Positions 2,826 through 36,390 of a DNA stretch of 64,000 nucleotides are shown here, in pieces; position 1 is the first letter of the stretch, and the number at the start of each line of letters is the position of its first letter. The DNA comes from Macrostomum hystrix (taxonomy: Eukaryota > Animalia > Platyhelminthes). The position numbers and the translations under genes were made by a program. The DNA lies in assembly GCA_950097015.1 (NCBI GenBank), contig CATNEN010000001.1:27094001-27158000 (forward strand). Reading direction: 5' to 3'. Under the pieces are notes generated by a model. That model was not told where the DNA came from. It saw only the letters and a program-made list of their open reading frames with translations, and ran no database searches.

Positions 2826-4539
2826 CAGGCGGCTTATTCTGAAGTTCTGACGGGCTTTAAGTTCTCTGAGTCGTTGTTCCCTTTGAGAAAACAAACTTCA
2901 GAATTTTTAGATAAGGGTCAGCATGTCGTAACCCAGTCCATGGACTGAACACTTCTGCAGCCAGCAGCTTGATCTTCGTAAAAATATTTTGTTTTATAAA
3001 ATTAAAAAGCGAGAAAACCAAAACCGAATTGATATTTAGAACTGCAGCAGCATTACACAGTTGTAGTTCGAATTTTCATAATGTACAGCGCTAATTTCCT
3101 ACGGCATTGTCAGTCTTGACGCCACTTTGGCTTAACAACAGCCAGTGAAAAAGTGTTTTTGTCCTTCAAAAAGCCAGTCACACAGCAATAGTTAGAAAAT
3201 CATAAACATATTTCATATATCACATATTTCTCAAACGTAGAATTTGAGAATTCACATTTATTTTGGCTTGAACAAATCACTTTTTAAGCTGCAATGCACT
3301 GCAAACCTTTGTTTTCACTTTCACTTTCACTTCTCCGTTAATCTAACGCACGTGTTAAATTTCAAACCGATAAACATAAGTTGACACTGAAAGTAATTAG
3401 ACAAGACGAAATAAATACAAAGACTCATGAGATTTTTTCCTGCCATTTCTTCATTTCTTCACAAGTTTGTGTATAGGTTCTGAAGTATTTATGCACTGTA
3501 GCTACAGTTTTTACAGAAGGCACATTTTTACCATTTTACCTTTAAGTCTCTTATAGCAGCTCAAGTTCTGTGTTTATCTATATTAGCAAATTTTGAAATG
3601 TCAACTAGGGATAAAAAGAGGGCCTCAGTTTAATCAATATTCATAAAGGCATTCAGAACAAGATTAGTTTATTCACAGTTAGTCAATCATGTCTTTTTGG
3701 TTGGCACTCAACAGGCTGTTGTTGATTGTTGGCCATTCAGCTTCAACACCAGACTAGGATTCTTGGGACTCCTTGTCCTGTTAGATAGGCTCTCCTTGTC
3801 CTGTTAGGTGTGAGAGGTGAGACAGTTGGTTTGCTGTTTGTATTTAGATCTATAGCTAGGCAAGAAGGGGCAGAAGGCTGATAAGAGCTTATAAAGGATT
3901 GTTAGCTATATTAGGTTAAATAGGACCACAATTGAGGTAATTATACAGGGCTGGTATGAACTGTGTATGGGGCTTGAGCATAAATGTACAAGATCTGATA
4001 GCTCAAGTGTACACTCTAGTACATCAGATAACTCAGTAAAGATAGCTAGCAATGCCACAATTCTAGCTAGTGTTATAAAGACCTGGGGAAAATAGTGTTC
4101 ATAAATAAATAGTCATTAGCTAGAGGAATTTCATAAACAGCAGTTTCAAGACAAGCAACTGCTCATGCAGTATCAAAACCAATAGCTCAAGGCAAACTGC
4201 TGTGCGTGCATTATCAAAACTGAGAGCTCAAGCAGCCAGCAAAAAATTTGTGAGTTGGGTATCTTGGGCTGGGTTGGGCTAACACTGAGAAATGATTATG
4301 TACTCAAGCACTTACCATAGCCTTTAATCATATGTGATTAGTTCTCATATGCCCTTAGGTATACCATGAGAGTGAAGACAACTAGATGCCACAATTCCAG
4401 CTAGTGAGCCAGTGTGATAAAGACCTGGTAAAATAAAATTGATAAATAAATAGTCATTATAAGGAAATTTCATAGCAAAGTTATGTACCTGTACCAGACC
4501 AAATATAGTGTACACTAGGATCACTTATATTGCTTGTAG

Positions 4540-9720: not shown

Positions 9721-9949
9721 AATGGTCGATTAAGTACTGCGCTCAAAAAATACAACACAGCCTACTAACAGTAGATTTTGAGGATGTGCCCCGAATTTTA
9801 TTTACCCCCCACCCACCCCAACTCGCGCCCCACACTGGTGGGCCACCAGCGCCCCGCTGTACGCCCCACTATACGCCCACCCACCGGTGCCTGGTGGGAA
9901 GGCGCATAGTGGGGCGTACAGAGGGGCGTATAGTAAATGTCCCACCGGG

Positions 9950-13200: not shown

Positions 13201-14394
13201 TCTTCTATCCCAGGCTGGCTGGAGAGAAATATCGACCGGAGAGCCCTGCGCACTGGGACGCCACCGCACTCACCGCACTCAGTCTCAGTGCTGCTTGGGG
13301 GCCAGTAGACAGTCTAGGGGTTTGGGCTGTGTACATTCACGGCTTGAAATACAATGTACAGTCTGGGGCTTCGGCGCCCGGGGAAGGGAGGGGGTGGCTG
13401 TAATAAAATTTGGCCCGCAGAGTGGCGGAGGGGAGTTGGGGTGGCTGTCCTCGGAAAACAAAAAGTGACTCACTTTGAGATGATGCAGCTTTGCTCTGGA
13501 TTGAGCAGAGATGTTCAAAATTGACAGCATTGTTGGAAAACATGGAAAAGTGTAAGTGGATCAAATTTGGAGAAAATCTGACAAAGTGGGGCGACGATAT
13601 GTCGAATTGAGTGATTTTTTAACGATTTTTGAGCAGTTTTTTGCACTTTTGAGCAGGAAGGAAATGATTTTTCGGGAATTTGAGTAGCCTATTGCACTCA
13701 GCGTAGGTGGTTTTAGGTATGTGCAAAGTTTGGTGCGATTTGGTTGAGCGGTTTCGGCGTCTATAAAGACAAAAGGTTGCACACACACACAGACACACAG
13801 ACAGAGTTTTCACTTTTATATATATAGATAATACGAAATGTATTTTACTCGTAGCCGCCTATTGCTATCTGCTTAACTGCGGCTGTGTTTGTCTCGGTGC
13901 GCTCATTGTTTTTAACTTGAGTATGCAATTTTTTACTACTCTAAGCAATAAGTATAATTTATTATTTCCTTGAATTAGTTTTAATGTTAAATTAATTTTT
14001 TCCCGTTGCGTTTATCATGCTAGTTATTTGGCAGGTAGTAGCATGATTGGAATGTAGATTGTAGAAACAATAAAAGTACATAAAATGAATATACGGAAGT
14101 ATTTTGGAATTATTATTATACTCTCTAAGTACTTTAAGCGAAACTGTCACATTATATTTTCTTGTTACTTTGACTACTTGTCGACCACAAAACTACTTTG
14201 TGTTATTTAGAAATAGATTGAATTCAACGATAACATCACTTAAATTGTAAAAAGTAATAATCGCACGTTGTGGACATAATTGCCATGGACGAGAATTTCT
14301 TTAATTAAACTAATTCTAGCATGCGCCCATTTACCACGCAAAAGATGGATTGTAGAAATGAGCTGCTCTTAAAGGACACCATAGTTTTGGTTAA

Positions 14395-14741: not shown

Positions 14742-17700
14742 ACGTTAGCGACATTTTACCGCACTGTTTATAACATGTTAAAAAACCGCACTGTCTAACA
14801 AACCTTATAATGCGGTAGACTATGCGGAATTTACCGCACTGTTCGAGAGTTCGAATCTCTTTTCAAAGGAAGCGAGTTGTGTCTTTTAGGAAGCTTCTGA
14901 TGTAGGCCTATGTACTTTGCAAACTCAGTTCAAACAAGCTGTAAAGTGGATACCATCATTATGTGGGGTATAAGTTTAGATGGTGCCGCGGTCTCTCGAT
15001 TCTACGGACTGAACAGTTAGCTGTTGACAGCCTTACGTATGTTTGTCTATTTGTAATGTATAGGTCTCTGTTGTTCGTAATTTTTTAGCTACGAGTACAT
15101 GTATATCTTCCGTAATCGCATAATAATTTTCAGGTATCTGGATGAGCAATTCCAGAGGTTCAGGACAGAACAAACGCCACGTCCCTCATCGCCGATTATT
15201 TTTATATGCTCAGTATAAAAATTTATAGTGTTAACGAAGCACTCTTGGTTGTCCAGTACGGTAAGTTATTGATGTATTAAAACTTCCTGGACATGTAAAT
15301 ATTGAATTTGTTTTATCACAACCGGAGATGTTGCGAACAGGTCTACTTCATTTGACTACCAGCAGAGTTTAATGGCCAGTCAAATTGCTGTCAGTCATGT
15401 GTCGTGCTCCAGTTGCGAACGTACAAGATATTCGAGACTGGCACAAATTAAAATTAAAATAAACTAACAGGTTCTTGACGCTTATCTAGCTTCCTTGGCT
15501 GCGGCTCACGATGGCATGTGAGCCTCCTGACCAGTCATGTCCAACTTGTATTATCTGGTCTCTCGAAAAGCTCGACGAAACCGCAAACGCGCAACTCGGG
15601 CAGGCCGAACAATCAGCTTGTACAAAAGAACACCAAACTGCCAGAAGAGCTAGTGATTAGGTTGCGTAAGGTTAGTTGTAGTTACATTTTTTAGTTCGTG
15701 ACACATTCTTTTTTTTTTTTCAACTAAAATCTGATTCGTTGATAAAGGGCTGGGTGGCAAAAGTGCATTGGCGTGCGCCATGAGTGAGTGAGCTGACTTG
15801 AGATAGAGACCGCTGCCACCAGTGTAAACTAAATCAGAAGGCGAGACTTGCGCGAGAACCGAGAAAACACCAGGTGACTAAAGCCTCAAGTGAGCGACTT
15901 TATATTTGGCGATTTACACCAGAGAGTGTACATCGCATTGCACAATTTACGAAGCCAACTTACGACCCGATGCGAGAATGAATCACCGCACACCTTACAA
16001 TATGTATCGATTCATTATCCAGTAAATTGATTGATTCGTTGGTTTTCGCTAAAATTTATTGATTTATTATCCCATGAATTGATTCATTGGTTGATTTAAA
16101 CATAATTTATTGACTGATTAACTATAAAAGTCCGATCTCCAAAAAACTACTGTTCAGGCCTCCATTGCCAAGGCCTCAGTGCTTGGCATCTGGCATGACA
16201 CCAACCATTTCATCCTTGTATGGATTAACTTGCGCAGCGGGTTCTTAACAATTTTGGACCCTGCTGGAGAGCGGGAAGCTGAGCTGCCAAGCATTTGTGA
16301 AGCTATCAAGTAATAAATTCCGTACCTTTGCTTAAACTTTTTTTACGGTCTCTGCACGTCACAATTCCTCCTTTGACTTGCAACGACAAGCAAAGCGACA
16401 TTGTGATTATGATTTTAATTTGGATTTTCTCTATTGAGCTATATAAATTTTCAGCACGTTGGCACTTCCGGCCGATATTAAATGGCCACAACTTGAGGTC
16501 CGCAGATTTGAACACCCGATGCAGCAGGACTGCAATAGTTGCGGAATATTTTGCTGCATTTATGCTTCTCGAATAGTGCAGCACGCCGACTTAGCGCAGC
16601 CAGTGCAGGCGACTGCGCTAGCCTTGCTAAATTATCGCCAAAAAAATTGGCGCGCATTGCTCCGGCGGGCCAGCAAATGCGTTGATTCCCGCTGCTTTTT
16701 ATGCGGTGAAAAAGATTGTCCTAGCGGAGCTGCCGAGCCCGAGAAAGAGCAAGACCTGTGGGTGAGTTCAATAAAGTTCGTGACTCATCTTATATATACT
16801 TAGACATAAACGTATAACAGTACACAGTAAACTCACAACCGCAATTTGTAAACATAATTATTGCATCAATTGTGAATCTTTTCACTTTCTAGCTATTGCC
16901 CACATACATTACACACGACAGATTTTTTGTGACTCGTGTCGCATGTGGTGCCACACGGTTTGCGCATTCGGCCATGCGCAAATCTCATCTGTCGAGTCAA
17001 TGGAGCAGCCGACTTGGCGGTGCGACTTCTGTATCGGGGCAGACACGTGAGTAGTTCGATTATGCTTTTAGATTCTGCAGTGCGAGTAAAAAATTCTTTG
17101 GTCTTCAGACGGCCGTGGCACCGATATTGACTGTTGCTGATATTAGAACATCCCCTTTCTCAAGAGGAACCAAGGTACGGAGGATTTGATAAGCTGCACC
17201 GTACGTCTTGACTGACTACGTCAAATGCAATGTCGCTCCGTCATTTGCAATTCAGTCTGGCTTGACTAATTGCATAGATTTTTGTACCGTAATATGGCTT
17301 GCGTCAGCATCCAGTTACTATTTACTCACTGTTTTGGCTCTGGACGATTTTTCGATGTGGACGTTTTTTTCGTTAACGACGTGCACAATGCAACAATACT
17401 AATTACACCGACTTTATATTCGAAGCTAAAATATATCTATCACTGTTAAACCTGACACTCCTACGCATAGTCCAAGCCTGAAATGAGGCTATTCAAACAG
17501 TGCGATAAATTCCGCATAGTCTACCGCATAGTCCAAGCCTGAAATGAGGTTATTTAAACAGTGCGGTAAATTCCGTATAGTCTACCGCATAGTCCAAGCC
17601 TGAAATGAGGTTATTTAAACAGTGCGGTAAATTCCATATAGTCTACCGCATAGTCCAAGCCTGAAATGAGGTTATTTAAACAGTGCGATAAATTCCGCAT

Positions 17701-17780: not shown

Positions 17781-19315
17781 TTCCTTTAGGTGGTAAAAAT
17801 AAATGTTTGGTTGATGTATGGCAGCATACTTTATATCAACCTCCTTCTTGTTGCGACTATGTATGATTTATCAGTGGCTGAGATTTATTGTTGCTGTACG
17901 AAAATTGACTCAAATGCTTTGACGCTTGTCAGTTTATCAGCGAGTATTATTAAGCGAGTATCTTTTTTATTAGAAATTTATGTGGAAAGAGGAAAAGAAA
18001 AACAAAAGCGTATACGTTCGGAAGTGAAAAAGTATTGTATTTTTACAAAATCTAAATTAAAAAGCATACGAACGAGCGACAGCATATAAAAGGCGGACTC
18101 TGGGTAAAAGGTAAATCTCTAGTCTATGGCCAAGGGTGCGAGTACTATGTCTCATTTGACATAGTTATATTAAGACTGAGGCTATGTCAAAATTGTATAT
18201 AACTTTTAATCTAGAATTTTACTAATACTAGCTTTAATACAATATTGTCTAGATTTTTTTACTTTAGTTCTTCTTAGAGCCAAACGGTGATAAACTTCTA
18301 TTCTAAGTATAGCAAGCGTTATGTTAAAAGGGAAAGGACTTTTTTGAACATCCCTCATTGTATATCTTATTGTTATGTTAGGTCATTACTCCCCGGTGGG
18401 ACACCCGCGCCCAACCCGCGCCTTCCCACCAGTGGCCCCGCTGTACGCCCCACTATACGCCCACCCACCGGTGAGCGGCGGGAAGGCGCATAGTGGGGCG
18501 TACAGCGGGGCCACTGGTGGCCACCAGTGGGGGGCGCGGGTTGGGGTGGGGGGTAAATAAAATTCGGGGCATATCCTCAAAGTCTACTGTTAGTAGAAAT
18601 GTTAGTTTGAAATCATGAAGCCAACTCAGTCGTGTAGGAAATTATTTCTAGATTGATTTTCAATTGAATCCGACTCGATAAACTGTGCTCAAATCTATTG
18701 GGACACCGACGACAGCCATATAGTGTACTGACATAGTCAGAGTTAAGATAAAATTTTCTAGGTGACTTTCCAGGTTAATAAGTTCGAGTGGAAATCATTT
18801 GAAATCATGAAACCAACTCAGTCGTGTAGGAAATCATTTCTGTGGGGGAGATCAGTAGGGTGAAAGGGAGATCAGTAGGGTGAGAGGAAGTGTGGTAGTG
18901 AGATGCAGTAGGGTGAGAGGAAGTGTGGTAGTGAGATGCAGCAGAGTGAGAGGAAGTGTGGTAGTGAGATGCAGTATATTTCGCAGGTATCCGAGTTGCA
19001 TTGTATTTACGATTCTCATCCTGGATTCTCATTTTATATTCTCATCCTAGATTCTCATCCTAGTTTTCATCATAGATTCTCATCATAAAATCTCCAGGAA
19101 GAGAAAGCAGCAGCTCCACGACACCAAGCACGTCAAGAAAGACCAACCGGAAGGCCGTAAAAGTGCAGCGTCTACAGGTCTAAACACAATTATGAGCATA
19201 CGAGCACACATATATTTATGAGCACATGAGCACTGAGCACAACTGAATAACGAAAAATAACGAAACAAGTTCACTAAGTTGACTTGTAATGCCGCATGCT
19301 GTTGCCAGGGGCCGG

Positions 19316-19731
19316 TTACCAAGGACGCCACAAAGGCTGGGCTTTATCCTGATGCTGATGATGCTGCTGCTGCTGCTGATGCTGGTCCATCGACTGGCTT
19401 GATTCTTCGTCAGTAGACAAAGCCGACACCGTTGATGAGGCCGAAGACTTGCAGCAGAAGCTTATGGCCGCAGATTGAGTCTTGGCTGAGCCATTCAGCA
19501 GCAGCTCGACAGTCAGCTCCAGGATTTCGGCCTTCTTAGACGCTGAAGCCGGTACGGTTTTATCACTTTGTTGGCCTTCAGCAGCTGTATGAGTTTTTCG
19601 AAGCTGGCATTAATTCTGGCTCTGCGCTGCCGCTCCATCACCTGCTTGCTGATTCTCCGATGCTCCATCAACTCTTCTGGGCGTGTGGTTCGTCTGTTTT
19701 TTTTTTAATTCGGAGCTCGAAATTTTGCCAT
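19316..19731 (-). pseudogene. hes: Second HES copy, frameshifted
   Basis: Paralogue of 2186-2554 ending QHQQQQQHHQHQDKAQPLWRPW*. 1-bp deletion at ~19537 (CCTTCT-TAG vs CCTTCTCTAG) and an altered 5' end. Could be an assembly error. Confidence 0.8.
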
Positions 19732-20507
19732 CGACCGGCCGCCGCCCGAGTTTATAAGTACACCCCCACCGCCAACCCCCGGCTTCCTGTTTCCTCTATC
19801 CCCGCTTCGCTCGTGAAATGAAGTTTTAGCTGTCATGTTCCGCCTAGATTCTCCCAAATGTGCCTTATCTCTAAAAACAAACCTCATAAGTAAACAAGAA
19901 ATATCACCAATTCTTTGAGGACCTCTCAACAATTAGAGTTCACAAAAAGGCTCGTTTCAGCAAGCGTGTGAATTAAAAATGACTGTCAACACAGGTGGAA
20001 AGGCGGCTTTATTCTGAAGTTCTGACGGGCTTAAAGTTCTCTGAGACGTTGTTCCCTTTGAGATTGCGATTGAGAATGTGACAATTAACTGTAATTGCAG
20101 CAGCATTACATAGTTGTAGTTAGAACTTTCACAGTGTACAGCGCTAATTTCCTACGGCATTGTCAGTCTTGACGCCACTTTGGCTTAACAACAGCCAGTC
20201 AAAAAGTATTTTTGCCCTTCAAAAAGCCAGTCACACAGCAATAGTTAGAAAATCAGAAACATATTTCAGACATAGAATTTGAGAATTACGTTTATTTTGG
20301 CTCGAGCAAATAACCTTTTAAGCTGCAATGCACTGCAAACCTTCGTTTTCACTTTCACTTTCACTTCTCCGTTAAACTGATAGGTAATGCACGTGTGAAT
20401 TTCAAACCGATCAACATATTTTCCTCGCTCGCACTCACTCTCTCTATTGAAATTGCAATAGCGGCAATTCAGCCCGGCTGTGTAGTCTATGGTTTTTTAT
20501 ATAGCGA

Positions 20508-20850
20508 TTCTTATGCAGCAAAAGAGCCCGGCCGAGTCCCCTATGCTTTCTTATGCAGCAAAAGAGCCCGACTCAACCCTTAATGCTTTCTTATGCAGCA
20601 AAAGAGCCCGACTCAACCCTTAATGCTTTCTTATGCAGCAAAAGAGCCCGACTCAATCCTTAATGCTTTCTTATGCAGCAAAAGAGCCCGACTCAATCCT
20701 TAATGCTTTCTTATGCAGCAAAAGAGCCCGACTCAATCCTTAATGCTTTCTTATGCAGCAAAAGAGCCCGACTCAATCCTTAATGCTTTCTTATGCAGCA
20801 AAAGAGCCCGACTCAATCCTTAATGCTTTCTTATGCAGCAAAAGAGCCCG
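20508..20850. repeat. Tandem array of a 40-bp unit (TAATGCTTTCTTATGCAGCAAAAGAGCCCGACTCAATCCT), 9 core copies
   Basis: Core TTATGCAGCAAAAGAGCCCG recurs every 40 bp from 20511 to 20831. Confidence 0.95.
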
Positions 20851-21226
20851 CGACCCGCTTTGCTATAATTCTAAATTGATGACTACTGATAGCAGTTGTT
20901 GCAGTGTTAGGTGCGAGATCGGTTGGCTGATTGAATACATATACCAGTCATGATAATTTTGTTTCAAATGGCGCAGTTGTGACAGCAGCGGAATGCAGTT
21001 CGAACATTCTATGAAATGAGTTTCATGCAGGGTATTATCTTACGTTACATGATGACTGCAGCCCCATGCCACTGCCCGCACCTGAGTTAGGGACCCATTT
21101 CGCACTGTGATGATCGATCGAAATTTTTCCAATATACTGTGGGATATATAGTGACTATAGCGGTATTAGCTAGTGTTAGACGCGTTGCTGCTGCACTCAC
21201 GACATTGTTGGGTGCGTAGAACCACG

Positions 21227-21646
21227 ATGAATGCTCATCCTGTGGCGCTGTTCGGCTCGCCGGCCATCGTGGCACTCCTGGCCAGATGCGACATCGCCTG
21301 CCTGGCCCCGTTCCTGGCGCACCGAGGACGACTGGAGCAGCTGACCTGCCTGCAGCGCCACTGCCCGAATGCTGAGCTGAATGCCACCCAGCTACACACC
21401 TTGCTGAAGAGCCTCCTGGACTGGCTGCTACAACACCAGACAGCTGCGGGCTACGAGACTATCCTGGAGGTGACCTGCCTAACAGAGAACGAGGCTTTCG
21501 ACTTGGCCGAGCTGCTAGGCCTGCTGGAGGACACCTGTTCGGAGCTGCAGCACATTCTACACGGGCTGGACTACCGGCGCGGCGTGCAGCAAAGGGCAAG
21601 ACTGCGAGAGTTGTTCCGGAGTCGCGAATATCGAATGGAGCAGTAG
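21227..21646 (+). CDS. Small all-helical protein (139 aa), possibly CARD/death-fold-like
   Basis: GC-rich ORF in AT-rich context, followed by AATAAA at 21723. Leucine pattern LAPFL..RGRL...LLKSLLDWL...GYETILEV...DLAELL. Confidence 0.5.
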   Translation: MNAHPVALFGSPAIVALLARCDIACLAPFLAHRGRLEQLTCLQRHCPNAELNATQLHTLLKSLLDWLLQHQTAAGYETILEVTCLTENEAFDLAELLGLLEDTCSELQHILHGLDYRRGVQQRARLRELFRSREYRMEQ

Positions 21647-21733
21647 CAGCAGCAAAAAGACTTAGCTACTAGACAGTTAAAATAACTTATCCCTGTTTGT
21701 GAACCCAAACCAAGTCTGCACCAATAAAAGAAC

Positions 21734-23759
21734 CAAGGACCACTGTAGTATAACAGGACGGGAAACTCAAAGATCGTGTAAATTTTTAGAAGGCCGATTT
21801 CCTGGAAAAAATACACTGCGGAGATAGGAAAAAGTCATTTTTTCAGCACATAATCAATTATTGCTTTTGATCTGGAGCAAGTTCAAATCCGTTCATCTTA
21901 GTACAGCATGCCCAACATTAAGCTCCGTTGTTTTTATATAGCTTCGTTTATAAAAGTCTTATTTTCACATATATATATTATATAATAGTGTCTTGAATCT
22001 ATATAGACTATAGACTAGCACATTTAATGGCTCAAAATATGATAGCTAAATATTCTTAATTTGGCCTAAATTGTTTGAATTAACAAATTAGCTAAATAGT
22101 TTGGCAAAACTAACAGCCAAAAAAGTTAACTAATATAACAGTAACTATATAGCTATAAAGGTACAACAAATTTCAAAGTGATTTTAATGCAACTGTAGTG
22201 TCGGCATGTTTTATAATGCGTATATTTCTACTTGTAGTAACTTATTCGCGCACGTCAATATTATGAATTATTTTAATGTATCTTATAGGTTAGTTGTTTG
22301 TACATGCGCACCCCAGCCAGGCCTAACACGCGACCGGCCGGTCACCCCTGCTCTACAGCCAAGGCATCAGACTAGCCCTGGTCTGGTGGGCCCAACCAAT
22401 GGGAGGACGGCTAGCCGATTGAAGTGAACCGACTTAAGTGCGACACCCCGAGCCGGGCCAATCAGCAGCCGGTTCGTTAACCGGCAGGGTCGACCTGGCA
22501 GAAGAACAAGCGGCGCGGCCGGCACCCAGGCTTTGATGAGGGCTGGGGCGGGCGCTTGACTATAAAACTGACTATTGCGCTGAAATATTGTTCTCATGTG
22601 ATTCTGGTCTCGCGTTCGACCTTGCTCTTGCTCTTGATCTTGATATTGTTCTCATTCGTGTTACGCATCCTAGTAAATAGATACCGGGACAGGTAAACCG
22701 GTCCAACTAGTTAGTCAAAGAAAACCCCCACACTCAACCCCACGTCAGTAAGTAGCTTGCGCTGAGCTCGGTACGTCTGGCCAACTGCTGACGGAGTGTT
22801 AGATAGGGATTGGCAAGCACGGAAGCACTCTCCATATCGCCGACAATCATCGGTGGGACGCCGTCGAACAGACATTAGGTGTGGCACGATAGAACTATCG
22901 TTGTGCCATAGTGCAGAAGTGCTTGCTGGTCGCCTCGGTTTTATGTTAGGGATTTTGGTTAGGTTTCGCGTTATTTGTCTTGTTTGTTATAGGGACTATC
23001 TGTTTGTCTAGGATTTATTTGTGTTATTTATCGTGTCGTATTATCGAGTAGAGTTCGTGTTTTGTGTTGCGGTTATCGAGATTTTGTTAGTGCGAATTGT
23101 GAATTGGATTGAATTAAGTACAGTACCTGGCAGGGGACGAAAAGAGCGCTGCCAGGGGAATTGATCAGTGATCATAGCTTTCTCTTATTTACTGATTAAC
23201 ACTTAAATATCAGCTGTTTAGCTTGGGATTTGAATCGTCTTGTCTTCGTTATTTTCGAGTTGCGAAAAGGGAATCTCTCACAAAGAGTAGGACACCCGAC
23301 CTCATTTAGGAATCTCAACGTAAAGAGAGACCTAAGTCAAAATATCACACAACCAAGTAAGTTAATTAATTTTTGGCTGTTAGTTTTGCCAAACTATTTA
23401 GCTAATTTGTTAATTCAAACAATTTAGGCCAAATTAAGAATATTTAGCTATCATATTTTGAGCCATTAAATGTGCTAGTCTATAGTCTATATAGATTCAA
23501 GACACTATTATATAGTATATATATGTGAAAATAAGACTTTTATAAACGAAGCTATATAAAAACAACGGAGCTTAATGTTGGGCATGCTGTACTAAGATGA
23601 ACGGATTTGAACTTGCTCCAGATCAAAAGCAATAATTGATTATGTGCTGAAAAAATGACTTTTTCCTATCTCCGCAGTGTATTTTTTCCAGGAAATCGGC
23701 CTTCTAAAAATTTACACGATCTTTGAGTTTCCCGTCCTGTTATACTACAGTGGTCCTTG
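21734..23759. mobile_element. P-element-like foldback MITE (~400-bp inverted arms)
   Basis: Starts CAAGGACCACTG, ends CAGTGGTCCTTG; 8-bp TSD AAAAGAAC; arms 21734-22130 and 23360-23759 are near-perfect reverse complements. Confidence 0.85.
22194..23349 (+). mobile_element. Solo LTR
   Basis: TGTAGTG...TATCACA with 4-bp TSD CAAC; internal TATAAAA at 22561; related to the LTR at 645-1804. Confidence 0.85.
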
Positions 23760-23834
23760 AAAAGAACTAAGGTGGCAGATCCAACTCGATACCGGGAAGT
23801 TTATTTTGGATAACCTAAAAATAGACCGTATAAG

Positions 23835-23967
23835 AGTACAGTTCGTGGTGCGCGCACAATCCCTAAGAAATATATACATAAGACGATGCGAGGTGCTTAT
23901 CTACCTAAAAATAGCAGGCAAGTCCTTATATATTTTTAAGTAATGTGCGCGCACTATGAACTGTACT
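23835..23967. repeat. ~120-130-bp inverted-repeat module (GTACAGT..GTGCGCGCAC...GTGCGCGCACTATGAACTGTAC); other copies at 28616-28732 and, degenerate, 32152-32253
   Basis: Terminal inverted repeats with TA at the borders (MITE-like); in this window seen only inside the YR-Rep element. Confidence 0.7.
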
Positions 23968-24064
23968 TCTCGCTAAAAGTACACACTATCAACTTAACCG
24001 GGATCCGAATTAACCTAATTAAGCACCTATTAATAGAATCTGAGTCGATCAGTTTAAAACTATA

Positions 24065-24102
24065 AGATCAATATGCGCGCACATGTGCGCGCATATTGAT
24101 CT
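24065..24102. other. Perfect 38-bp palindrome
   Basis: AGATCAATATGCGCGCACA|TGTGCGCGCATATTGATCT. Confidence 0.95.
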
Positions 24103-24323
24103 ACTAGAAGTAGTATAGTAACACTGGTACTATCTGCTGCTCATCCTAAATAGCCTGCTCCTCCTCCTTGGGACGTACTTGGGACTCTATTATTAATAGC
24201 GAATCCCACCCTGTTGCACCCAGTTGAAGTTGAGTACCTGGGACTGCGTTGGCTTTCTGCAGCCTGCTCATTTTCATACATCCAAATTTGAACGCGCCTA
24301 TAATTAACCTGCGGAAGCACAGA

Positions 24324-27124
24324 ATGTCGTTCAACTTTTCAACCGGCTGCGACAGCGACGATGAGCGAATTGCGGCCGCGCTGGACGAGTTTGAGAGAGT
24401 TGCCCAAGATAGTAACTCCGCCGGGCCGGTAGCGTCATCAACTCGCCAGCCACCATCACAGCGAAAAAGAAAGAGCGCTCCCTCTCAACGTCGGATTGTC
24501 AATGCAGCAGCCGCAGAATCTACGCCAGGCCCAAAGCGTATATATACTTTCACCCCAGTGCAGACAGCAGCGGTGGCTAACATCAGCAGCGACGCCGACG
24601 ACTTCAGCCTGCTGCCATTGAGCGGTGTCATGCGCCTAAACACTGGAGAGCAGCAGCCTGCCAGTGACCAGATGTCCACAGGCAATCAGCAGCCACCGCC
24701 TGCCAGTATATCGGCCGTCTACGCGCCCATCTCCCACGCGATGGCAGCCTCAGCCTCGACTGCGCCAAAAGGGAGCATGCTGGCTTGGCTCGGAGATCAG
24801 CACCGGAGTGCCAAGAAGGCCACCAGCAGATGGTCATCGCCGGCAGCGATCAGGCACGTCAGGCGACATGCTCCTGCCAACTGCGGCGATGGCGACGGGG
24901 CGGCGTCTGATGCGCCCGACATGTCCACGGCAGCCCTACAGCCTCGCAGCCCCGTCGTCATCGAGATTGAGGACGTCGACGACGAGCGCGCCGATAACGG
25001 CAGGCCGACAGCGGCAACTCGCACAAAGGCGGAGCCATCGGAGCCTAACGAGCAGGAGGCGGCGATGGATAGCGACGACCGCGATGCTCTGCAGGCACTG
25101 CTGGACTACGAGGCGTCCACCGTTGCGCTGTCAGTCGCTGCAGATCCCCCACCGTCGGGCGCTGATGCGGAAATGGAGGAGGCCGCCAGCACGGTGCCGA
25201 AACCGCCTCAAGTCGCGGCCGACCAACAACAGCAGCCAGGGAGGCGGAGATTCCGTTTCCAGCGGCTCGAAACGACTGCTCCCGCTGTTGCTGCTGCTGC
25301 CGACTGCTCCATTGTGGGCGCCATGGTGCCAGACTCGCAGCCCGATGGCCGACGATTAGCAGTCGCCAAGACCACACCGTCTCAGCGTCCGGAAGATGAG
25401 ACGACGGCCTACGTGGTGTCGCCTGGCACAGCGGCATTCGCAGCAGCCGTGGTGGCCGCTATGAATGAGGCCAGCCAGTCCGTCCCTGTCGGCGAGGAGT
25501 GGTGGCGCATATTAACACCACAGCCGCTGCAGCAACAAGAGCAGGTGCAGCTCGAGCGTCCTCCCTCGCTGGTGCCCTTCAGCTACAGTCCGCCGGCGTC
25601 TGCGGCACAGCTTATTCACTTCCTCCAGCAACAGCAGGGGGACAGCGAGGCGAGCGGGAGCGGGGTCGGCGGCGCCAGAGGACAACGAGGCGGCCGAGGG
25701 GTGCGACGGCTGGGCCAAAATCCGCTGCTTAATGCGGCAGCAGCACAGCAGCAGTTCACTGTGACGCGCTCAGTCAGCCGGCCGCTCGCAATGACCGGTG
25801 CTGCTCCTGCGGAGCGACTGCCCGAGGACAGCGGCATTCTGACCGGGCGCCGCTATTTGCACGTCTTCCACATCGACAAGGTGCGCTTCGTCGGTGAGTC
25901 ACTTGCTTTGTTCATAAGCTCTGAATCATATAACCAGCTGCTGGCATCCACTGTTTCCATGCTGCCTACATAAACAGGTCGTGCCAAAGTATATCTGGGC
26001 GAGGCTCTGGAGGCACACTGTGTCGAGCTCGTCCTGGCGTCCAGCCCGGGCCTCTGCGTCGGCATGGATGAGTTCTGCGACCGGCGGCTAGTCGCTGACC
26101 CGCTCTCCGTCGACGAGATGGAGCAACAGCAGCAGCAGCAGCAGCAGCACAGCGAGTATCGGCCACACCGCACTCTGTCCGGCTTCGTGCGCCTGGAGAC
26201 CAACGCGGCCGGCTGGCATTTGTACGAGCTGCTGTTCAGCCTGCTGCCTAGCCGAGACGAGGGACGCTGCTTTGTGGTGCCCGACCGGACCACCCTGACG
26301 CTGTGCGGCGTCCGCTCGCCAGACAGTGTGCTGCGGAGCCTGACGCAGCACGACGGCTACCCGCTGCTGATCGGGATCGGCGCCACGCAGTGCAGCATGC
26401 TGGTGCAAGCGACTCGGTGGGCGCTGTCCTACCCGCTGACTGCCAACCTGCCAGACCAGACTGACGGCTTCTTGTTGGCCCACCAGCAGATGCGCGCCAC
26501 GTTGCTGGGGGTCTTTAGAGACGTGCAGCGCCAGCGCCGGATTCGCAGGGAGCAGCTCGCCGGCTGTTCCGCATGTTCCACCGAGGCTGCCGACATTAGG
26601 AACCTGTGCCCGCTCCGAGAGGCCGTCTGCACAGCCCTTCGCCACCAGTCGGGCGTTGTGTACCTTTACGGGCCGTCGGGAGTCGGCAAGACCACCGCCG
26701 TCGAGCGCCACCTGGGCCAGGAGCGCGTCTTCTGTCCGGTCATCAAGCGCTTCGGTGGCAATGACTTCATGTTCGACGGCCTGGACACCGCGCGCCACTC
26801 CGTCATCTTTCTGGACGAGGTGCGGCCGCACATGTTCGAGGGCGGCGACCTGGAGACCACGCTGTTGCGCCTGCTGAACGGCAACAGCTTCCTGGTCAAT
26901 GCGAAGCACCAGGCGCACGTCTACCTGGACTGGGGCCAACGGCTGGTGATCGCGGCGATGGCGGCCACGCCTCACCTGACGACTACCCGGCTGACGTGCA
27001 GCGGCGCCTGCGCAACGAGGGCAACACGTGCGTCGAGGTCGACCACGACATCGAGGCCTGCCAGGGGGGGTGCCGCCAGCAGCCAATGTTCGGAGCCGCC
27101 GCCGCCAACGCCCAGGTTGAATGA
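24324..27124 (+). CDS. Rep-like protein: long disordered N-terminus, degenerate HUH domain and SF3 helicase (exons 24324-25893 and 25978-27124; 1-bp frameshift at ~26958)
   Basis: Intron GTGAGT...AAACAG joins the two track ORFs in frame. Walker A YLYGPSGVGKTT, Walker B VIFLDE, B' LLRLLNG...VNAKH. Restoring one A gives motif C LVIAAN and arginine finger VQRRL. Confidence 0.8.
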
Positions 27125-28939
27125 GGCCGCCTTTATATGTCTGTCTGTCTGTCTGTCTATTGCTAAATTATTTCATCCCTGCGCCCGTATTTTGTCTCCA
27201 CCACCATCTTAAAGCGGGTTAGCAGATGTGGGCAGGCAGAAATAGCTAGACGGCCAAAATATTACATAACAAAATATTAGTCCTTATTGGGCTAAATAAG
27301 GAATGGCTTTTGGGTTCGGCTGTTTAACAGCACCATATATTATAATCTATACCTGGCACGCAGTTGCAGAAAACGGGGTAGCAGAAATGTGCGCGGACTA
27401 TAGCAATTTATAAAGCATTAGATGGGATTAGTTTAATTGAATTAAATAGCGCGCAGTGTTTTCCTAGTGTTTTTGTTGCTCGTCAGTCTAGATGTGCTAA
27501 GAGATGGAGATGGCATTTATTACTTGTTCTCAGGATCGCTTCTCGCTCTTATCTGATTGCTTTTATTTTGAGTTCTATTATTTCAGAGTCAATATTTTCA
27601 TTTAGCATATGTCGCAGGCTGTCGAAAATTTCAATTGTCCCCATTTTATTGCCGTTCTACTTTTTCTGTACCGGCTCCATTAAACTTTTTAATCCCTCAC
27701 CGCCAACAAATAGTTGTTGTTGTTGTTGCTGTTGCTGCTCTCCAACAAGTTAGATAGATGGGCAGCTAGAATAATTAACAATGATTGCCTACCTTGTGGA
27801 GCGCAGATAAAAATCACTTTAAACGCAGTCGTCGTCGCTGGGGTCGCAGCTGGAGCGGAGCAATCGGAACAGTGTAGGGGGCAGTCGAAACGAAATAGTA
27901 GATCACGAAGGAGCTGATTTGGTTGATTAATAGAGTTGGTATTGAAAATCAAAGTGTAGCTTGGGAACGATCGAGTCTGTCTTAATCGATTGGCATAGAG
28001 AAATCAATCAGTGCGCGAGCTAGCTCTCTTTGACTTGTGTGCTCAAGATGAGCAATACAGTCCTTCCTGATAAAATTTAGTTTCTATGTGCCTAAGCTTT
28101 GTCTATGTCTTGAGTTTATCGCATTCCTTTATTAATAGTAGTCTAAATATAATTTTACACACACGCAGTTGTTATGTGCTTATTTGGGCGCTATTTGTGT
28201 TATTATAATTTATAATAATTGAGCTATAATAATTTGAGTAAGTATACTAGTATATGGTATGAAAAGCTGACTGCATGCATTAATATGTGAATAAAGGACA
28301 TAAATCAAGAAAAAGCATTCAATCAAGAACTACATGTAGTAGACGGTACGTATGCATATGAAAAATCGGCAATTAACTAATTTAAGATGAAAATCAACAA
28401 GCGGCATCTGCAATAACAAGCAATTAAAATACATGTAGTAATGATGTGTGCATTAAAATACAATTTGGATGGACGCAAAAAGCTATACATATAATATAGT
28501 AGTACGATTTAATAACGGCAATTAACAGCTGCATATAGTGCTACTCAGTTATTTATAGATTTTATATAAGAAACTAAAATTTCAAATTCGCGCTAAATTC
28601 TACGAAATTCAATGTGTACAGTCTGTAGTGCGCGCACATTCCCTAAAAAATATATAAGGCATGTCAGCTCTAATTTTAGAACGACGATCCTTATATATTT
28701 TTTAAGTATTGTGCGCGCACTATGAACTGTACCTAAATCTAAAATTAAATTGCTTACTTGACTACTATAAGTAGAGCAGTTAGCAGCATTTGTTTAGTAA
28801 TTGTCAGATAAATCTATGGCTAATTAAATAATTCTATCAACAAAAACAATAAAGTATAATATTATCAACGGGAGTAATCAGTCAATCAATACAATCAATA
28901 TTCTTAACTATAGCATATAATATCAATTATAATAACATT

Positions 28940-28977
28940 AGCGTATAAAGCGCGCACATGTGCGCGCTTTATACGCT
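28940..28977. other. Perfect 38-bp palindrome with the same 18-bp core
   Basis: AGCGTATAAAGCGCGCACA|TGTGCGCGCTTTATACGCT. Confidence 0.95.
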
Positions 28978-29207
28978 GCAGTAACATGCAGTCAAACGAA
29001 TTCAATTATCCCTCCCTCGAAGGCCTGTGCATGTTTTCTCTGCGTGTTTTCTCTCTGTCCCGGCCCCCTTTATCTGCCCCACGGTGTTTTTCACTCACTA
29101 TTTAAATATTTAATAATATTTTATATTATTAATATAATATAAATTAAATATTTTATATAAAATCTTAAATAAAGCAGGCAGACAGACAGGCGGGCAGGCA
29201 GGGCGAA

Positions 29208-32068
29208 TCAATCAAAATTATGCTCCGCCACTGAGTGCAGCCGCCGTCGCTTTCCGGCCACCGGTCTACCGTGCAGGACTGCGTCGGCTCGTTGGGTGCT
29301 CGCCGCCACCTCCCCACTTCCACCAGCCAGGCTGCTGATGAGTCCCTGGGTCGGCGGCCTAACTATTGGTCGCATCTCTGCGTCACCTGATGGCACCACA
29401 AACCGGCGGACAATATCGCGGCTGCGAATTACTGTGCCCATCTCGGTGGCCATCTGGGCATTGTGCCCATAATTGTACCGGATGACAGCTGCAGATGTGC
29501 CGTGCGCTCTGGCGAACATATCCAGCTGCTCCGGCTCCATCATGAGCACTACGGCACAGAGGGTGCGACGCCAGTGCGTGGCCACATAGTGCCGACCCAG
29601 TACTCGCTGCCCGCCTGCGCTGATCATGCGGCTCATTGCCGACTGGCTGTACACACCGCCGAACACATCAATGAAGACGGTCGGCGACTCCGGTTGCTCG
29701 ATGCCGCGAGCAGCAAGCGACGGCACGATATATTCGTCGTGCAGGCGCAGCAAGGCCTCGCAGAATAGATCCGGCAGCACCATCCTGGCTGGGTCGCCGG
29801 AGTGTCCGACCTTGTGCGGCACTTCACGCAGCGGCAGGACGAGATGCGAGTGCCCAGCCAGATCGGCAGCGGACGGCCCGCTCTCCCCATCTACACTTTG
29901 CGTGTGTTGGCGGAACAGCTGTTTTTGGTCGGCCGACGTGTTTCGCCGAACCGAACGGTCGACCAGGTGTCGCCGACGGATGTAGATCCACGGCAGGAGT
30001 CGCAGGGGCTGCTCAATGCTGCAGTAGAACAGCATCTCCTGCACAATCCTCCGCAGACAAACCATCCGGCGACTGAAGGCACCATCATCTGCTTCGCCGT
30101 TGTCTTTGGTGACATCAGCGATGCCATCAGCGACCACACCTGCTGCCTGCATGCCCCATTCGCCGTCGACTGGCAGCAAAGTCCAGCTGTGCCTTTGTAG
30201 CATGGCAAAAAAACGATCACGGCGGGCGAACACGGCATCGACCTCGTCCACGTTGACGTAGGTGTCCATGAAGGCCACCTGCCGCTCGTTGTGGCCAAGC
30301 TTGTAGACTGCCTGCATAGTATAAATGTGGTTGCGTTTACTTATAGTAGATAGCAGCACGAAACCAAATAGAACTAACTGTCATTAATGCAGCTGCTGTG
30401 CAGCTAGCTCACCTGCTGGATGGCGCGGACGTTGCCGAACTCGCCGCGAGCCTGCTGCACCACGCTGCTAAGGCGGGCGATGAGAGCCTGCTCAGCCGCC
30501 AGCGGGTTGTTGGCCTTCTGCGCCAACTGCATTCTCCAGCAGACGCCACTGCCGACAGAGTCGACGTCCTCAATAGCAGGGCGCTCGGTGTCAGGCGAGG
30601 GTGAGTCGATGCTGCAGAACAGCTCGGCTTCGCGCAAGCCAACGGCGGCCATGATGGCATTGGCGCCTCGCAGGCCCCTCACGCGTAGCCAGCCCTCCAT
30701 GCAGCGGCAGATGCTGACAAGCTCCTGGCACTTGCGCGCAGCAGTCGACTGGGCCAGCTGCATGGCGTCACCGACTGTTTCAGCGCTGAAGCAGTCCTGC
30801 ACCCTGTCCGGCTGAAGCAGCAGGTCTGCAAGCGATATGCCCGCTCGCTGCCAGGTGCGTAGAAGCGTCGAGCTCACGGACCTGCTGATGTCGCGCCAAC
30901 GCTGCTGGTGGCACAAGTTGGCCGCAATCCTGGCCCGCGATGGGTCCCTCCACCATAGCTCCCGCAGGCGTTCCACCGTTGCGGAGATGCTGGGCCGGTC
31001 ACCCAACGGCTGCAGCAGCTCTGGTGGCACGGGCTTCGCAGGTGGCGACGTGCGAAAGTGTCGACAGCGCGGACCGCGACGCTGTTGCTGCTGCTTCTGA
31101 TCGGCTGTCGACGCTTCCTGCTGCAGTTCTGCTCCGAAGATGGACTTTTGAAGCCGGTCGAATTCGGCACTGGCCAGTTTTATCTTCAACGCAGCCCACC
31201 TTGCTGCAGCTGCTCGACGCTGCCTCGGCGGAGTAGCTGCCAGCTTCACTAGCGGCCTCTGTGCAGCCGACACCACAGCCGATGACGTGCTGGGACGATT
31301 AAGCGCCGACTTAGTGGCCTGCACCGCCAACTGCAGACAGGCAGCCGAAGAGGAAGACTCTGCTGCCACCGTATGGACTGTCGACAGAGTCCGCATTCTG
31401 ATGCTGGTTCCGGGCAGTAGCTCCTGCAAGCCGACATCGTCATCTCCATCGTCAGCGTCCTCCTGTGAGGACATTAGCAGCAGCGGCGCAGTCGGGTCAA
31501 ATAGGCGTCGCCGGACGGCTGGACGGCTGGCTGACGACAGCCGAGCACTGGCCGCTGACTGTCGACCGTAAACGGACGGCGCGGCGATGCTGTAGAGCTC
31601 GGCCAACAGAGACCCAGCCTCGTATTCAGCTGGTTCTGCCTCTGAAGGCTGCTGCGGAGGCGGTGGTGGCATCTGCTGCGGAGGCGGTGGTGGCATCTGC
31701 TGCGGAGGCGGTGGCTGCTGGTGTTCCACAGCAACGGTAGCAACAACAGCTGGCACTGCTGGACAACTGTGCTGCCTTGCTGTCCTACGCAGCACCTTGC
31801 CGCAGGCTGGGCACGCATGTACATGCTCAGTGTTGGCTGAGCTGCGCGTGTGGGTGCTGCACGTCAGGCAGAGCCAGACCATCTGGGCACGCTGCTTGGC
31901 TGACGCCGCTGCCCAAGATGCCTCGGACGGCCGCACCTTGACTGGGGCATCATCGAGTCGGAATTGGCGCACAGCCTCCTCCGCGTGCCTCCTCAGGAAG
32001 TGGCGCTTCGGATGCGTCTGCGGTCTGCCGTCGCCACAGAAGATGCAGCACGACTCGTTGTCTGTCAT
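29208..32068 (-). CDS. Tyrosine recombinase (~919 aa) with N-terminal Cys/His zinc-finger-like region (exons 32068-30413 and 30311-29208)
   Basis: A 101-bp phase-0 GTGAG...ATGCAG intron joins the two track ORFs. Catalytic pattern EQPLR (R), PHKVG (K), THWRR (HxxR), ARAHGTSAAVIRYNYGH (Y). The start could be up to 63 nt further upstream. Confidence 0.8.
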
Positions 32069-33198
32069 AGCTATTGTTATTACAAATTGATGCAGTGCCA
32101 TATAGGTGTATGAACTGAATTCAGTATACATGCTCAATCAACACATGCTATGTACAGTCCGTTGTGCGTGCATCTAAATAAATATATATATGCCCCTATA
32201 TCCCATTATGGAATACACTATTTTAAGTGTTGTGCGCGCACATTGTCCCGTACTGTTGTCATCGCTGCTGCATTTATATTCGATTGAGTGCTGCGTTGAG
32301 CACATAAATCACTTATTTTTATGTTGTACCTAACAACAACAACAACAACAACAACATCCTGGCTGTAAAAATTATAAGCCTCTGAATCATTTATAAATTT
32401 TAAAAACATAATTTTTCATTTGCAATGTAGTACAATCAGCTCAGACATTCGATTTTCCAGTGAACAGCACACCCACCCCCTCCAACTCGATCTTCCTCCC
32501 TCAAAAGCAGTGCCGAGCCAGCCAGACAGACCTGCAGATGGAAAGAGAGACGACTTCGATCGTCTTCAGTCTATGGCCACAGGGGTGACATTATCGATTG
32601 GTTAAAGCAGACACACTGCTTCTCTTTTTCAAGGCAGAGCAGTGGCCTTCCACACCCTTTTACCATAGACTATGAATTTAGAGACAGGGCCGCCCCCTTT
32701 CGCTTTCGAAGGTTTAAAGAAAGGGTGGCAAGCAAAGTAGCAGTCTTTTAGTTTTAGCCCGGCCCAACTGCTCGATCGAACTGCAGCTTACAGTCAAATA
32801 TAATTCAGAGATTCATCCACAATTCGAATCAACAGTCTGCCTTCTATTTGCTTGGACTATATTAAAACAGGCTACAGATATAATATCGACAGAGAGCCAC
32901 AGGATCTATTATTATGTCAACAGCAAGCATTAGGATCTAATATATTTCTAGGCAGCTCAGAACTGCATAACACTTACAGAGATTACTAATATATTATAAT
33001 TATAGAGAACTGCATGCGCTATTATCTATTAGATTAACAGACCGATTGTTATATGTATACAAGTACTAATTGAAGGGCCTATTATATATACAAAGACTAA
33101 TCTGAGGGCCTATTATATTAACACAGCTTGTAATGCATATTTATGAACAGATACTTATATGGCCTATTTAAAATACACAGCCTTTTTCTTATTTGCAG

Positions 33199-33810
33199 CG
33201 CAACAGACAGCATCAGCAGAAGCATCAGCAGAAGCAACCGACAGCATCAGCAGAAGCATCAGCAGTAGCAGCAGTAGCAGCTCAGTAGCAGCTCAACAGC
33301 TCTAGCAGCATCAGTACCAGCAGCCAGCCCCATCTGCCCGTGCCCACTTCGAGGTGCAGCAGAAGCAGCAGTACCAGCAGCCAACCCCGTCCGCCTGTGC
33401 CCACTTCGAGGTGAGATAAAAATTAAATTGTACAGCTGGATAGCATTAGTTAGCCTCAGCAACTATATTCGAGTAGACTTTAGCGTCGAAATTATATTCT
33501 AATTGCTTTTTTCCATGCTCATCCTCAGCTCAGTGCAGCTAAACCGGCCGGCACCAGCCAGCAGCATCAGTAGCCGAAGCCAGCCCCGTCCGCCTGTGCC
33601 CATTTGCCAAGCAGCAGCAGTAGCAGCAATAGCAGCACAAGCAGCAGAAGCAGCAGAAGCAGCAGAAGCAGCAGTACCAGCAGCCAGCCCCCGTCCGCCT
33701 GTGCCCACTTCGAGGTGAGATAAATATTCAATTGTACAGCTGGATAGCATTAGTTAGCCTCTGCGAAATATAATCGAGTAGACTTTAGCATAGAAATTAT
33801 ATTCTAATTG
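33199..33810 (+). pseudogene. Degenerate, internally duplicated Gln-rich exons (QYQQPxPSAxAHFE|GT)
   Basis: Acceptor TTTGCAG; donors GAG|GTGAGA repeated at ~33411 and ~33715; CAG>TAG stops. Confidence 0.35.
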
Positions 33811-36390
33811 CCTTTCCGTGTTTTTTGCTTGTCGTCGCTGCCGCCGCCAGTCAAAGTTAAATCAAATTATTGAATGTCATAAGACATAGAGTCTGTGTCA
33901 ATCAGTGTCAATCAGTCAGTCAATCGATCTCGAACGAAACAATACATTCAGTATACTGTACACTGCTGCTGCTCTAATGCAATATCAATAACGAGAGAAA
34001 ATGAGTGCTTGCGAGCAAAGCCATAGAGGAAGCGTGGTCTTCCCAGTTCTAAAAATAGCTGCAGAGCTAGCGCGTGAATTTAAATACACTGTTTACGTTG
34101 TTATAAACGAGAGAAGATGAAAGTGATTTTAGGAAGGCCTTTATGTTCATTTTTTGTCTTAATCTGACTTCCGAATAAATAAATCTAAATAGTAAGCTAA
34201 ATGGAGCAGAACTGAACTGCTGCGCACTGAAATATAAGCGCTATACGAAACTTGCTATGTTTGCGTTTCAATGAGGCCCAAATGGCTCTCCGAAAAGACC
34301 GAATAATGAGTCGAAAAAAGCTGGGCAAAAATCTGAAAATTAGGAAAGTATATTGACAAACTTGACACTGAAATTAATTAAACAAGACGAAATAAATACA
34401 AAGACTCATGAGATTTTTTCCTGCCATTTCTTCACGAAACATAGGAAAAGTTATTTTGCAAAGTTAATTATTGTTTCAAGCATTTATAATTGCTAGGAAT
34501 TTCAGCCATCTCATAATTATTTGAGTTGGCATTTGTATTTAGAGTATATGTTATATGAATATAGCAGCAAAGTGTGTTCTTATGAAGTTTGTGTGTTTTT
34601 AATTATTTATGCACTGTAGCTACAGTTTTTACAGAAGGCACATTTTTTACTATTTTACCTTTAAGTCTCTTATAGCAGCTCAAGTTCTGTGTTTGTCTAA
34701 ATTGGCAAAAATTGAAATGTCAGCTAGGGATAAAAAGAGGGCCTCAGTTTAATCAATATTCATAAAGGCATTCAGAACAAAATTAGCTTATTCACAGTTA
34801 GTCAATCATATCTTTTTGGTTGGCACTCAGCAGGCTGTTGTTGATTGTTGGCCATTCAGCTTCAACACCAGACTCAGATTCTTGGGACTCCTTGTCCTGT
34901 TATATAGGCTCTCCTTGTCCTGTTAGGTGTGAGAGGTAAGACAGTTAGTTTGCTGTTTGTATTTAGATCTATAGCTAGGCAAGAAGGGGCAGAATGCTGA
35001 TAAGAGATGATAGAGGAATGTTGCTCATAGGTTAAATAGGACCACAATTGAGGGAATTACACAGGGCTGGTATTAACTATGTACGGGGCTTGAGCATAAA
35101 TGTATAGTGTCGGGCTAACAATAAAAATGATTATGTACTCAAGCACTTACCATAGCCTTTAATCATTTGTGATTAGTTCTCATATGCACTTAGCTATGCC
35201 ATGAGAGTGAAGACAACCAGATGCCACAATTCCAGCTAGTGAGCCAGTGTGATAAAGACCTGGTAAAATAAAGTTGATAAATAAATAGAGGAAATTTCAT
35301 AGCAAAACTGTACCAGACCAAATAACTCTAGTGTACACTAGGATCACTTATATTGCTTGAAGAAACAAGAAGAGAAGAGGAGAAAAAAGGACAGGAGAGA
35401 AGAGGAGAGGAAAGAAAAGCAGAGGAAAGGAGGGGAGAGGGGGAGAGGAGGGGGGAGAGGAGAGGAGAAGAGGAGGGGAGAGAATTTCATAAACAGCAGT
35501 TTCAAGGCAAACTACTGCTCATGCAGTATCCAAACCAATAGCTCAAGGCAAACTACTGTGCATGCATTATCAAAACTAAGAGCTCAAGCAACCAGCAATT
35601 GTGTGTTAGGTATCTTGGGCTGGGTTGGGCTAACACTAAAAATGATTATGTACTCAAGCACTTACCATAGCCTTTAATCATGTGATTAGTTCTCATATGC
35701 CCTTAGCTATGCCATGAGAGTGAAGACAACCAGATGCCACAATTCCAGCTAGTGGGCCAGTATGATAAAAACCTGGTAAAATAAAGTTGATAAATAAATA
35801 GTCATTATAAAGAAATTTCATAGCAAAGTTATATAACTGTACCAGACCAAATAACTCTAGTGTACACTGGGATCAATTGTTATTGCTTTGCAGGAGCTAA
35901 CCAACAATTTTTGGTTGGGTATCTAGCAAACACTTTACAACAAATGATTAGCCAAGCCTTACCAGTTCTCAGATGCCAGCCTGAAGATAGCAAGCAAAGC
36001 CATCATTCCAGCTTGTGTGATAAGGACCAGTTAAGATGTACTAAGCCTCACTGCAGTTTGCTAAGTTTTTACCATCCTTTTAACTGCTTTCACTTTCTTA
36101 AATCCTTAATTCCTTTCAGGCTCTTTAATTATTTGTAGCCACATTTCACTTTTCTTTCAAGCTTTCAGCTGAATTGCCTCTGACATCATCCATGAGCAAT
36201 GAGCTGCAGCTCAGGAGCATTGAGCTAAAAGCTAGGCTTCTCTAGCTAGTGAAACCAAGCTATACACTTTTACCATCCTTTAACTACCTTAAATCCATTT
36301 GAACATTTTAAACACCCTTTGATACACTTAATTTACTCTTATTCACTTCTACTTTTGCTTTAACTTTACTTATTTACTTTTCAATTTCCA

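Follow-up and report, generated by a model that had tools for sequence, protein, structure and literature searches.

The window analysed here, a stretch of 64,000 nucleotides of Macrostomum hystrix DNA, contains an HES-like bHLH locus twice, with copy A at approximately 2100-9950 and copy B at approximately 19240-40780. The bHLH product matches PF00010 (E 1e-10) and has a C-terminal WRPW. Copy B holds approximately 13.9 kb without counterpart in copy A, inserted about 0.7 kb upstream of the HES-like gene. In the paralogue alignment, positions 3040-3378 pair with 20093-20418 and 3378-3453 with 34359-34434, the 13.9-kb insert is missing from the paralogue, and the 337 flanking columns contain 20 substitutions and 5 gap openings. 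The empty site of the paralogous locus lies at 3361..3392 (plus strand), and a joint of the same type (20418 to 34362) was seen in X1, X2 and X3 among the assembled contigs of four of eight listed runs (X1-X4), which were placed on window positions 18000-36500. From the paralogue without the insert, a contig joint from 20413 to 34356 and a slide test, the whole element was placed at 20416..34357 (13,942 bp), its boundary being slidable inside a 3-nt ACA overlap from 20414-34355 to 20417-34358. A tandem array with a 40-bp unit (20468-20850) lies just inside the left end of the element. The HES-like gene of copy A (2186-2554) is intact, with 122 aa ending in WRPW, and that of copy B (19290-19730) is frame-shifted near 19536; all contigs placed there, in the four runs, have one extra base relative to the window, and the frame shift may be confined to this assembly or allele. 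A Pif1 helicase fragment located between the two HES copies (12721-13269, minus strand; PF21530, E 1.5e-19) is likely a Helitron piece. An ORF at 16459-16803 (plus strand), also outside the element, has no match in a Pfam scan, and we take its motif QQD..SCG to be Ulp1-type protease-like.

Two open reading frames lie on the minus strand of the element, at 30404-32137 and 29208-30380; splicing of a 101-nt GT-AG intron that we infer at 30412-30312 would fuse them in frame. The upstream exon (30413..32137, minus), delimited from the ORF list and a weak N-terminal match to the Macrostomum lignano protein P0011, comprises a Cys-rich N-terminus, a low-complexity linker and a helical region. The second exon (29208..30311, minus) was taken as the tyrosine recombinase-like catalytic exon from ESM Atlas, Foldseek and residue conservation. 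ESM Atlas places it at 0.97 and 0.96 to Phage_integrase clusters (recognition 2780), with telomere resolvases at 0.93. Its predicted model is weak (pLDDT 58), and in the Foldseek search with this model XerA, XerH or integrase made up seven of the ten top rows, at E values of 0.25-1.1 (0.25-0.74 for the leading XerA and XerH rows), none significant. The longest VIA alignments were to integrase, topoisomerase IB, Xer and Cre, with Z of 4-5, tied with helical bundles. R105, K168, R249 and Y282, counted from 30314, are conserved in all alignment rows covering the respective column (5/5, 5/5, 6/6 and 6/6), and both catalytic His positions are variable; the catalytic roles are presumed from the spacing of Cre/XerD. 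A Pfam scan of the second exon gave no match, with neither DUF3504 nor DUF3435. A full HMMER scan with the catalytic exon found 7 relatives among 1.84 billion representatives; none was found in a word-indexed protein set (4,398 candidates), in solved structures or in phages, and locus searches gave none for the recombinase. The catalytic exon aligns with M. lignano P0011 (1,084 aa) at 25% over 306 aa (E 1e-25), and the first exon matches the P0011 N-terminus weakly, at 29% over 107 aa (E 1e-4). Near-identical M. lignano copies suggest that the recombinase belongs to a multi-copy family there; the UniRef labels of the relatives P0005, P0006 and P0008-P0012 read 'Ras-GEF' or 'C2H2-type'. Taken on these comparisons, the gene likely encodes a divergent tyrosine recombinase with an integrase catalytic fold.

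An SF3 helicase-like gene lies on the plus strand at 24249..27124, defined from ORFs, a Pfam scan, M. lignano P0013 and ESM Atlas. A long low-complexity first ORF is followed by the helicase domain, with a putative 84-nt intron at 25894-25977 and, in this copy, a frame shift near 26950-26970. The helicase matches P0013 at 71%, and in ESM Atlas lies at 0.91-0.94 to PF00910 clusters that include Cressdnaviricota and Rep_OBD plasmid Reps, with recognition under the tool's 2300 mark. In CRESS-type Rep replicons an HUH endonuclease domain precedes the SF3 helicase; here the Pfam scan gave no Rep match, and the fold model (pLDDT 43) was unusable. Helicase relatives of greater length were not found, which is weak evidence. 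Four weak ATPase loci (L001-L004), 3 of them from metagenome contigs, at 31-35% over 48-70 aa, and 1 from viral contigs, were dropped as not being true relatives. Two hairpin modules flank the helicase gene on either side. One (23836..24102) consists of an imperfect hairpin of about 120 nt and a perfect 38-bp palindrome (24065-24102), and the other (28616..28977) of a related hairpin and a perfect 38-bp palindrome (28940-28977). The two palindromes share their central 18 bp, and the window has one other palindrome of at least 20 bp, which is 20 bp long. They are candidate origins of replication or hairpin-telomere sites of the protelomerase type, telomere resolvases being among the look-alikes of the recombinase. 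An ORF of 157 aa at 21173..21646 (plus strand, from the ORF list), helical and of unassigned family, has no Pfam match and no relative among solved structures; contig depth in X4 is 137 over this segment and approximately 10 over the rest of the element, and the segment may also be part of a more abundant repeat or of a non-autonomous derivative. A Pfam scan of 6 element ORFs gave no capsid, packaging ATPase or DDE transposase. Near the right end, CAG-rich repeated blocks with apparent splice sites (33196-33790) are possibly exons of another element gene.

The element also carries a nested foldback element (21734..23759) with TIRs of about 400 bp starting CAAGG and an 8-bp TSD, AAAAGAAC, features that we take to be P-like. 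A joint from 21725 to 23760 shows it to be polymorphic in X1. Inside it lies a 1,156-bp TG...CA insert (22194..23349) with the 4-bp TSD CAAC, likely a solo LTR, whose contig depth is high in all four runs. Both are passengers of the 13.9-kb element. They also served as a control for the contig joints, the joint-table overlaps of 8 and 4 at these elements being the TSDs read in the window (8 and 4 bp).

The first-pass annotation had proposed that the element ends, with inverted arms of approximately 15 bp, would form a lox/dif-like site on circularisation. The strings that it quoted are present: TCAACATATTTTCCT at 20411-20425 and AGGAAAGTATATTGA at 34342-34356, complementary at 13/15, and GATAAACATA in the empty paralogue at 3369-3378. 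A window-wide scan for inverted matches with 3 mismatches allowed gave 5 matches against 2.65 expected, which is chance level (16/100 shuffles reach 5), whereas a 13/15 match no more than 8 nt away from two randomly chosen positions arose in only 2/20,000 trials, so that the end-to-end match is above chance. The decamer AGGAAARTAT occurs only twice in the 64 kb, at the two ends of the element. On the left it forms a 10-bp arm, ATATTTTCCT in plus-strand letters (20416..20425, minus), a predicted core-binding site of the recombinase that is complementary at 9/10 to the right arm, AGGAAAGTAT (34342..34351, plus). Outside the left arm is a host-side 6-bp spacer, ATCAAC (20410..20415, plus), which stays in the empty site and reads ATAAAC in the paralogue. 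Following the right arm is an element-side 6-bp spacer, ATTGAC (34352..34357, plus), a candidate donor or coupling segment on which the symmetry of the predicted circle junction is best centred. The two spacers are identical at 4/6 positions, namely the two outermost bases at either edge. By the joint and the slide test, the 3-bp direct repeat ACA lies at 20414..20416 and 34356..34358 (both plus), and the arms are offset from it by 0 and 4 bp.

Joining the ends would give AGGAAAGTAT - ATTGAC - ATATTTTCCT, likely a compact 10-6-10 lox/dif-like site of 26 bp, with arms matching at 9/10 (9/11 when lengthened) and a candidate coupling segment of 6 bp. Among random joins, 176/200,000 equalled 9/10 arms around a 6-bp spacer. 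All four crossovers permitted by the joint predict this one identical circle junction. The core site proposed in the first-pass annotation is upheld as a prediction, and a tyrosine recombinase-like gene lies within the same element, but the arms that belong to the element are of 10 bp. The apparent 15-bp arms arise because the two spacers are near reverse complements, which adds 4 matches. The likeness of the left arm to the target comes from the first five bases of the 15-bp arm, which are the target itself. The strings TCAA-ACCGA-TCAA and TTGA-CAAAC-TTGA are both in the window, but ACCGA and CAAAC are not couplings, since both remain in the empty site. The four arms share an AARY motif in the same position; it was noticed post hoc and left uncounted.

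The extent of the arms is read from an empty joint in run X1, which may share one source with the window. This joint leads from 20413 directly to 34356, leaving out 13,942 bases, and three letters (ACA) fit either side. It is carried by one contig of depth 183.5, which has 36 letters on its shorter side and is listed as 'between: not known'. TCAAC stays on the host side in this joint and the paralogue has TAAAC at the same place; the supposed 15-bp left arm therefore begins with five bases of host DNA. Of five end models compared, only the one with 10-bp arms and the left spacer kept reproduces the joint; its fit to the paralogue is 18.5, against 7, 9 and 14.5 for three 15-bp-arm models. The crossover ambiguity of about 8 bp given in the first-pass annotation shrinks to the 3-nt ACA overlap if this single-contig joint is right. 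The filled right junction is spanned by one X1 contig (33751-34391), and no piece spanning the left filled junction was among those listed. Contig depths of 522 at the filled right junction, 183.5 at the empty joint and 703.5 for the paralogue type are not readable as copy numbers, depths inside the HES gene being split differently. No circle-type joint was found among 15 of the 31 joints, in contigs, which drop rare forms.

The letter-by-letter reading covers one insertion of the element, and a single insertion cannot tell a fixed from a variable spacer. The ends could then be of a plain Crypton or Starship type, with a fixed donor motif of 3-7 bp in which ATTGAC(A) is constant at the right end, targets are merely similar and no variable coupling exists. 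In the accessible text of the respective papers, CryptonF-1 ends in CACCG and has CAYCG targets (PMC9977147) and Sanctuary has 6-bp imperfect repeats (PMC12257634), and this reading has the arms, circle and enzyme in common with the best explanation. However, a contig of organism B (X4 record 31, 3,139 nt) follows the element to 34353, within the supposed constant motif, and then continues with 2,539 other letters (not displayed); its aligned part has 14 other letters and 5 gap letters, and its orientation convention is taken from X3 record 17. A break two bases into the spacer is what another spacer and flank would be expected to give, and a nested insert or a clipped mismatch may look alike. 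We consider a fixed donor motif unlikely. The reading with 15-bp arms inside the element and ACCGA and CAAAC as 5-bp couplings, for which the joint in X1 could be an excision footprint, draws on the 13/15 end complementarity (2/20,000 by chance) and on Tn916-family ends, which in the accessible text of PMC12229494 often have 5-bp couplings between the arm and a 4-5-bp host stem. It is highly improbable: the paralogue has TAAAC where copy B has TCAAC, the three models of this kind disagree with the joint and fit the paralogue worse, and the additional 4 matches are explained by the near-reverse-complement spacers.

The unconstrained paralogue fit is best at 20417|34359 or 20418|34360 (22 against 18.5), one base off the register of the joint. 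A crossover at 20417|34359, the best gap-free fit at a score of 22, would cut the left arm to 8 bp, leaving the inverted repeat as an 8-bp subterminal motif, and would make the joint in X1 a later product of excision or repair, one base shorter. We weighted the joint above the paralogue fit because the paralogues have diverged to the extent given above; with 5 gap openings near the site a one-base indel is unremarkable, and this crossover leaves an overlap of 1 nt rather than 3 and destroys the 9/10 symmetry, making it improbable. A perfect 3-bp repeat on both sides of the insert, together with a virus-like helicase, would also be compatible with a DDE-type insertion with a 3-bp TSD, ACA, or with a repair-captured endogenous virus fragment, the recombinase being a passenger in either case. 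Yet there is no DDE transposase among the scanned element ORFs, the inverted repeats are not flush with ACA and would be 4-5 bp out of register if ACA were a TSD, and repair capture would not yield a symmetric junction (176/200,000). The poor fit to a DDE-type TSD is in agreement with the first-pass annotation, and we find such an origin very hard to credit.

Most probably, a 13.9-kb tyrosine-recombinase element of Crypton- or Starship-like type has its attachment sites at these ends, moves as a circle and accepts a spacer with partial mismatch. Points against this reading are arms shorter than those given for such sites, the variable His positions, the weak recombinase model, the low likeness of the host site to the arms, the single contig behind the empty joint and the better paralogue fit one base away. 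The recombinase would synapse the two junctions by binding both arms, with cuts predicted at the spacer edges, and excision would release a circle carrying the 10-6-10 core. Strand exchange with a loosely similar host site would then reinsert the circle, leaving the host spacer ATCAAC at the left junction and the element spacer ATTGAC at the right. The spacers agree in their two outermost bases at either edge, so that the enzyme likely accepts a mismatched spacer middle, as IntDOT does. The ACA repeat would then be homology between the spacers and no target-site duplication. Replication of the circle may be made possible by the SF3 helicase together with the two palindromic modules. A more ambitious reading, which we put forward only tentatively and think doubtful, is that of a capsid-less circular replicon combining a Rep-like SF3 helicase, palindromic origins, the 10-6-10 core and Tn916/CTnDOT-style spacers, which would form an undescribed ICE-like class of animal element.

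The element works like a Crypton or a Starship, yet it fails defining features of each. The following comparisons apply to the accessible parts of the papers cited. Cryptons, with the lineages A, F, I, S and V, have no TIRs and have 4-6-bp direct repeats, and a circle has been proposed for them (Kojima and Jurka 2011, PMC3212892; PMC13465315); CryptonV is mentioned in PMC8869645 and PMC5753468, and the active CryptonF-1_cRei has a donor motif at its terminus and excises cleanly (PMC9977147). Like these, the present element is eukaryotic and gene-proximal, with a tyrosine recombinase-like gene bearing a putative intron, a short terminal direct repeat as candidate substrate and, by one joint, a probably clean empty site. 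Unlike Cryptons, which carry a recombinase only or a recombinase plus peptidase, it has 10-bp inverted arms, 13.9 kb of length and an SF3 helicase-like gene, and its recombinase is without a Pfam match and without DUF3504. In place of the 4-6-bp repeats of Cryptons it has a 3-bp perfect or 6-7-bp imperfect repeat, and one precise empty joint. Starships have direct repeats and asymmetric or offset TIRs (PMC12257634), and circle reads, excision that leaves no footprint and a one-ended donor motif have been reported (PMC10104507, bioRxiv 10.64898/2026.09.21.753150), a circular intermediate having been demonstrated for Hephaestus. The present element is similarly large, with a short direct repeat and offset inverted repeats, its circle being predicted. 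In contrast to Starships, which are fungal with a DUF3435 captain first, it has an animal host, no DUF3435 and an internal recombinase gene, and its arms are symmetric and directly at a candidate 6-bp spacer.

In IntDOT and Tn916, overlaps and couplings are partly mismatched (PMC2817482, PMC12229494). Like CTnDOT and Tn916, the element has a short predicted overlap, part-identical between element and target, with imperfect inverted arms on both sides. CTnDOT and Tn916 are bacterial conjugative elements, and CTnDOT has a 7-bp overlap with 2 identical bases on one side, whereas the element has 6 bp with 2 on each side. In the bacterial type of coupling the segment next to the end varies between copies and derives from the previous target; the likeness here is drawn from one insertion. 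Compared with lox/dif-type sites, with core arms of 11-13 bp and spacers of 6-8 bp (PMC3212892), the predicted 10-bp arms are shorter and the predicted 6-bp spacer is within the range. Unlike the Cre/lox rule of identical spacers, the spacers here, ATTGAC and ATCAAC, match at 4/6. Polinton-like viruses have modules with a recombinase and an SF3 primase-helicase at their ends, and capsids (PMC11296320). The element is like these in combining recombinase, SF3 helicase and inverted repeats, and such viruses occur among the viruses and in the genomes of animals. Their capsid and protease genes and D5-type primase-helicase were not found among the 6 element ORFs scanned, nor were their long terminal repeats found in the element, and its helicase look-alikes are of the CRESS and plasmid Rep type. 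In the literature listed, no title or opening of an abstract described a flatworm element pairing a recombinase with a helicase; Repbase Reports and the supplements of PMC3212892 may hold one.

For eukaryotic DNA elements of the tyrosine-recombinase type, termini are difficult to delimit, and a demonstration of the circle model has come only recently, from a fungal Starship. The animal element described here supplies a testable candidate core, exact to the base and 26 bp long, for which the cut positions and a tolerance of spacer mismatch are predicted. If the proposed mechanism is true, integration through coupling sequences in the bacterial style would extend to animals, and a recombinase would stand beside a Rep-like helicase in an element without an evident capsid. 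A recombinase of this sort, with a short site and from a lineage of model flatworms, may also be of use as an integration tool.
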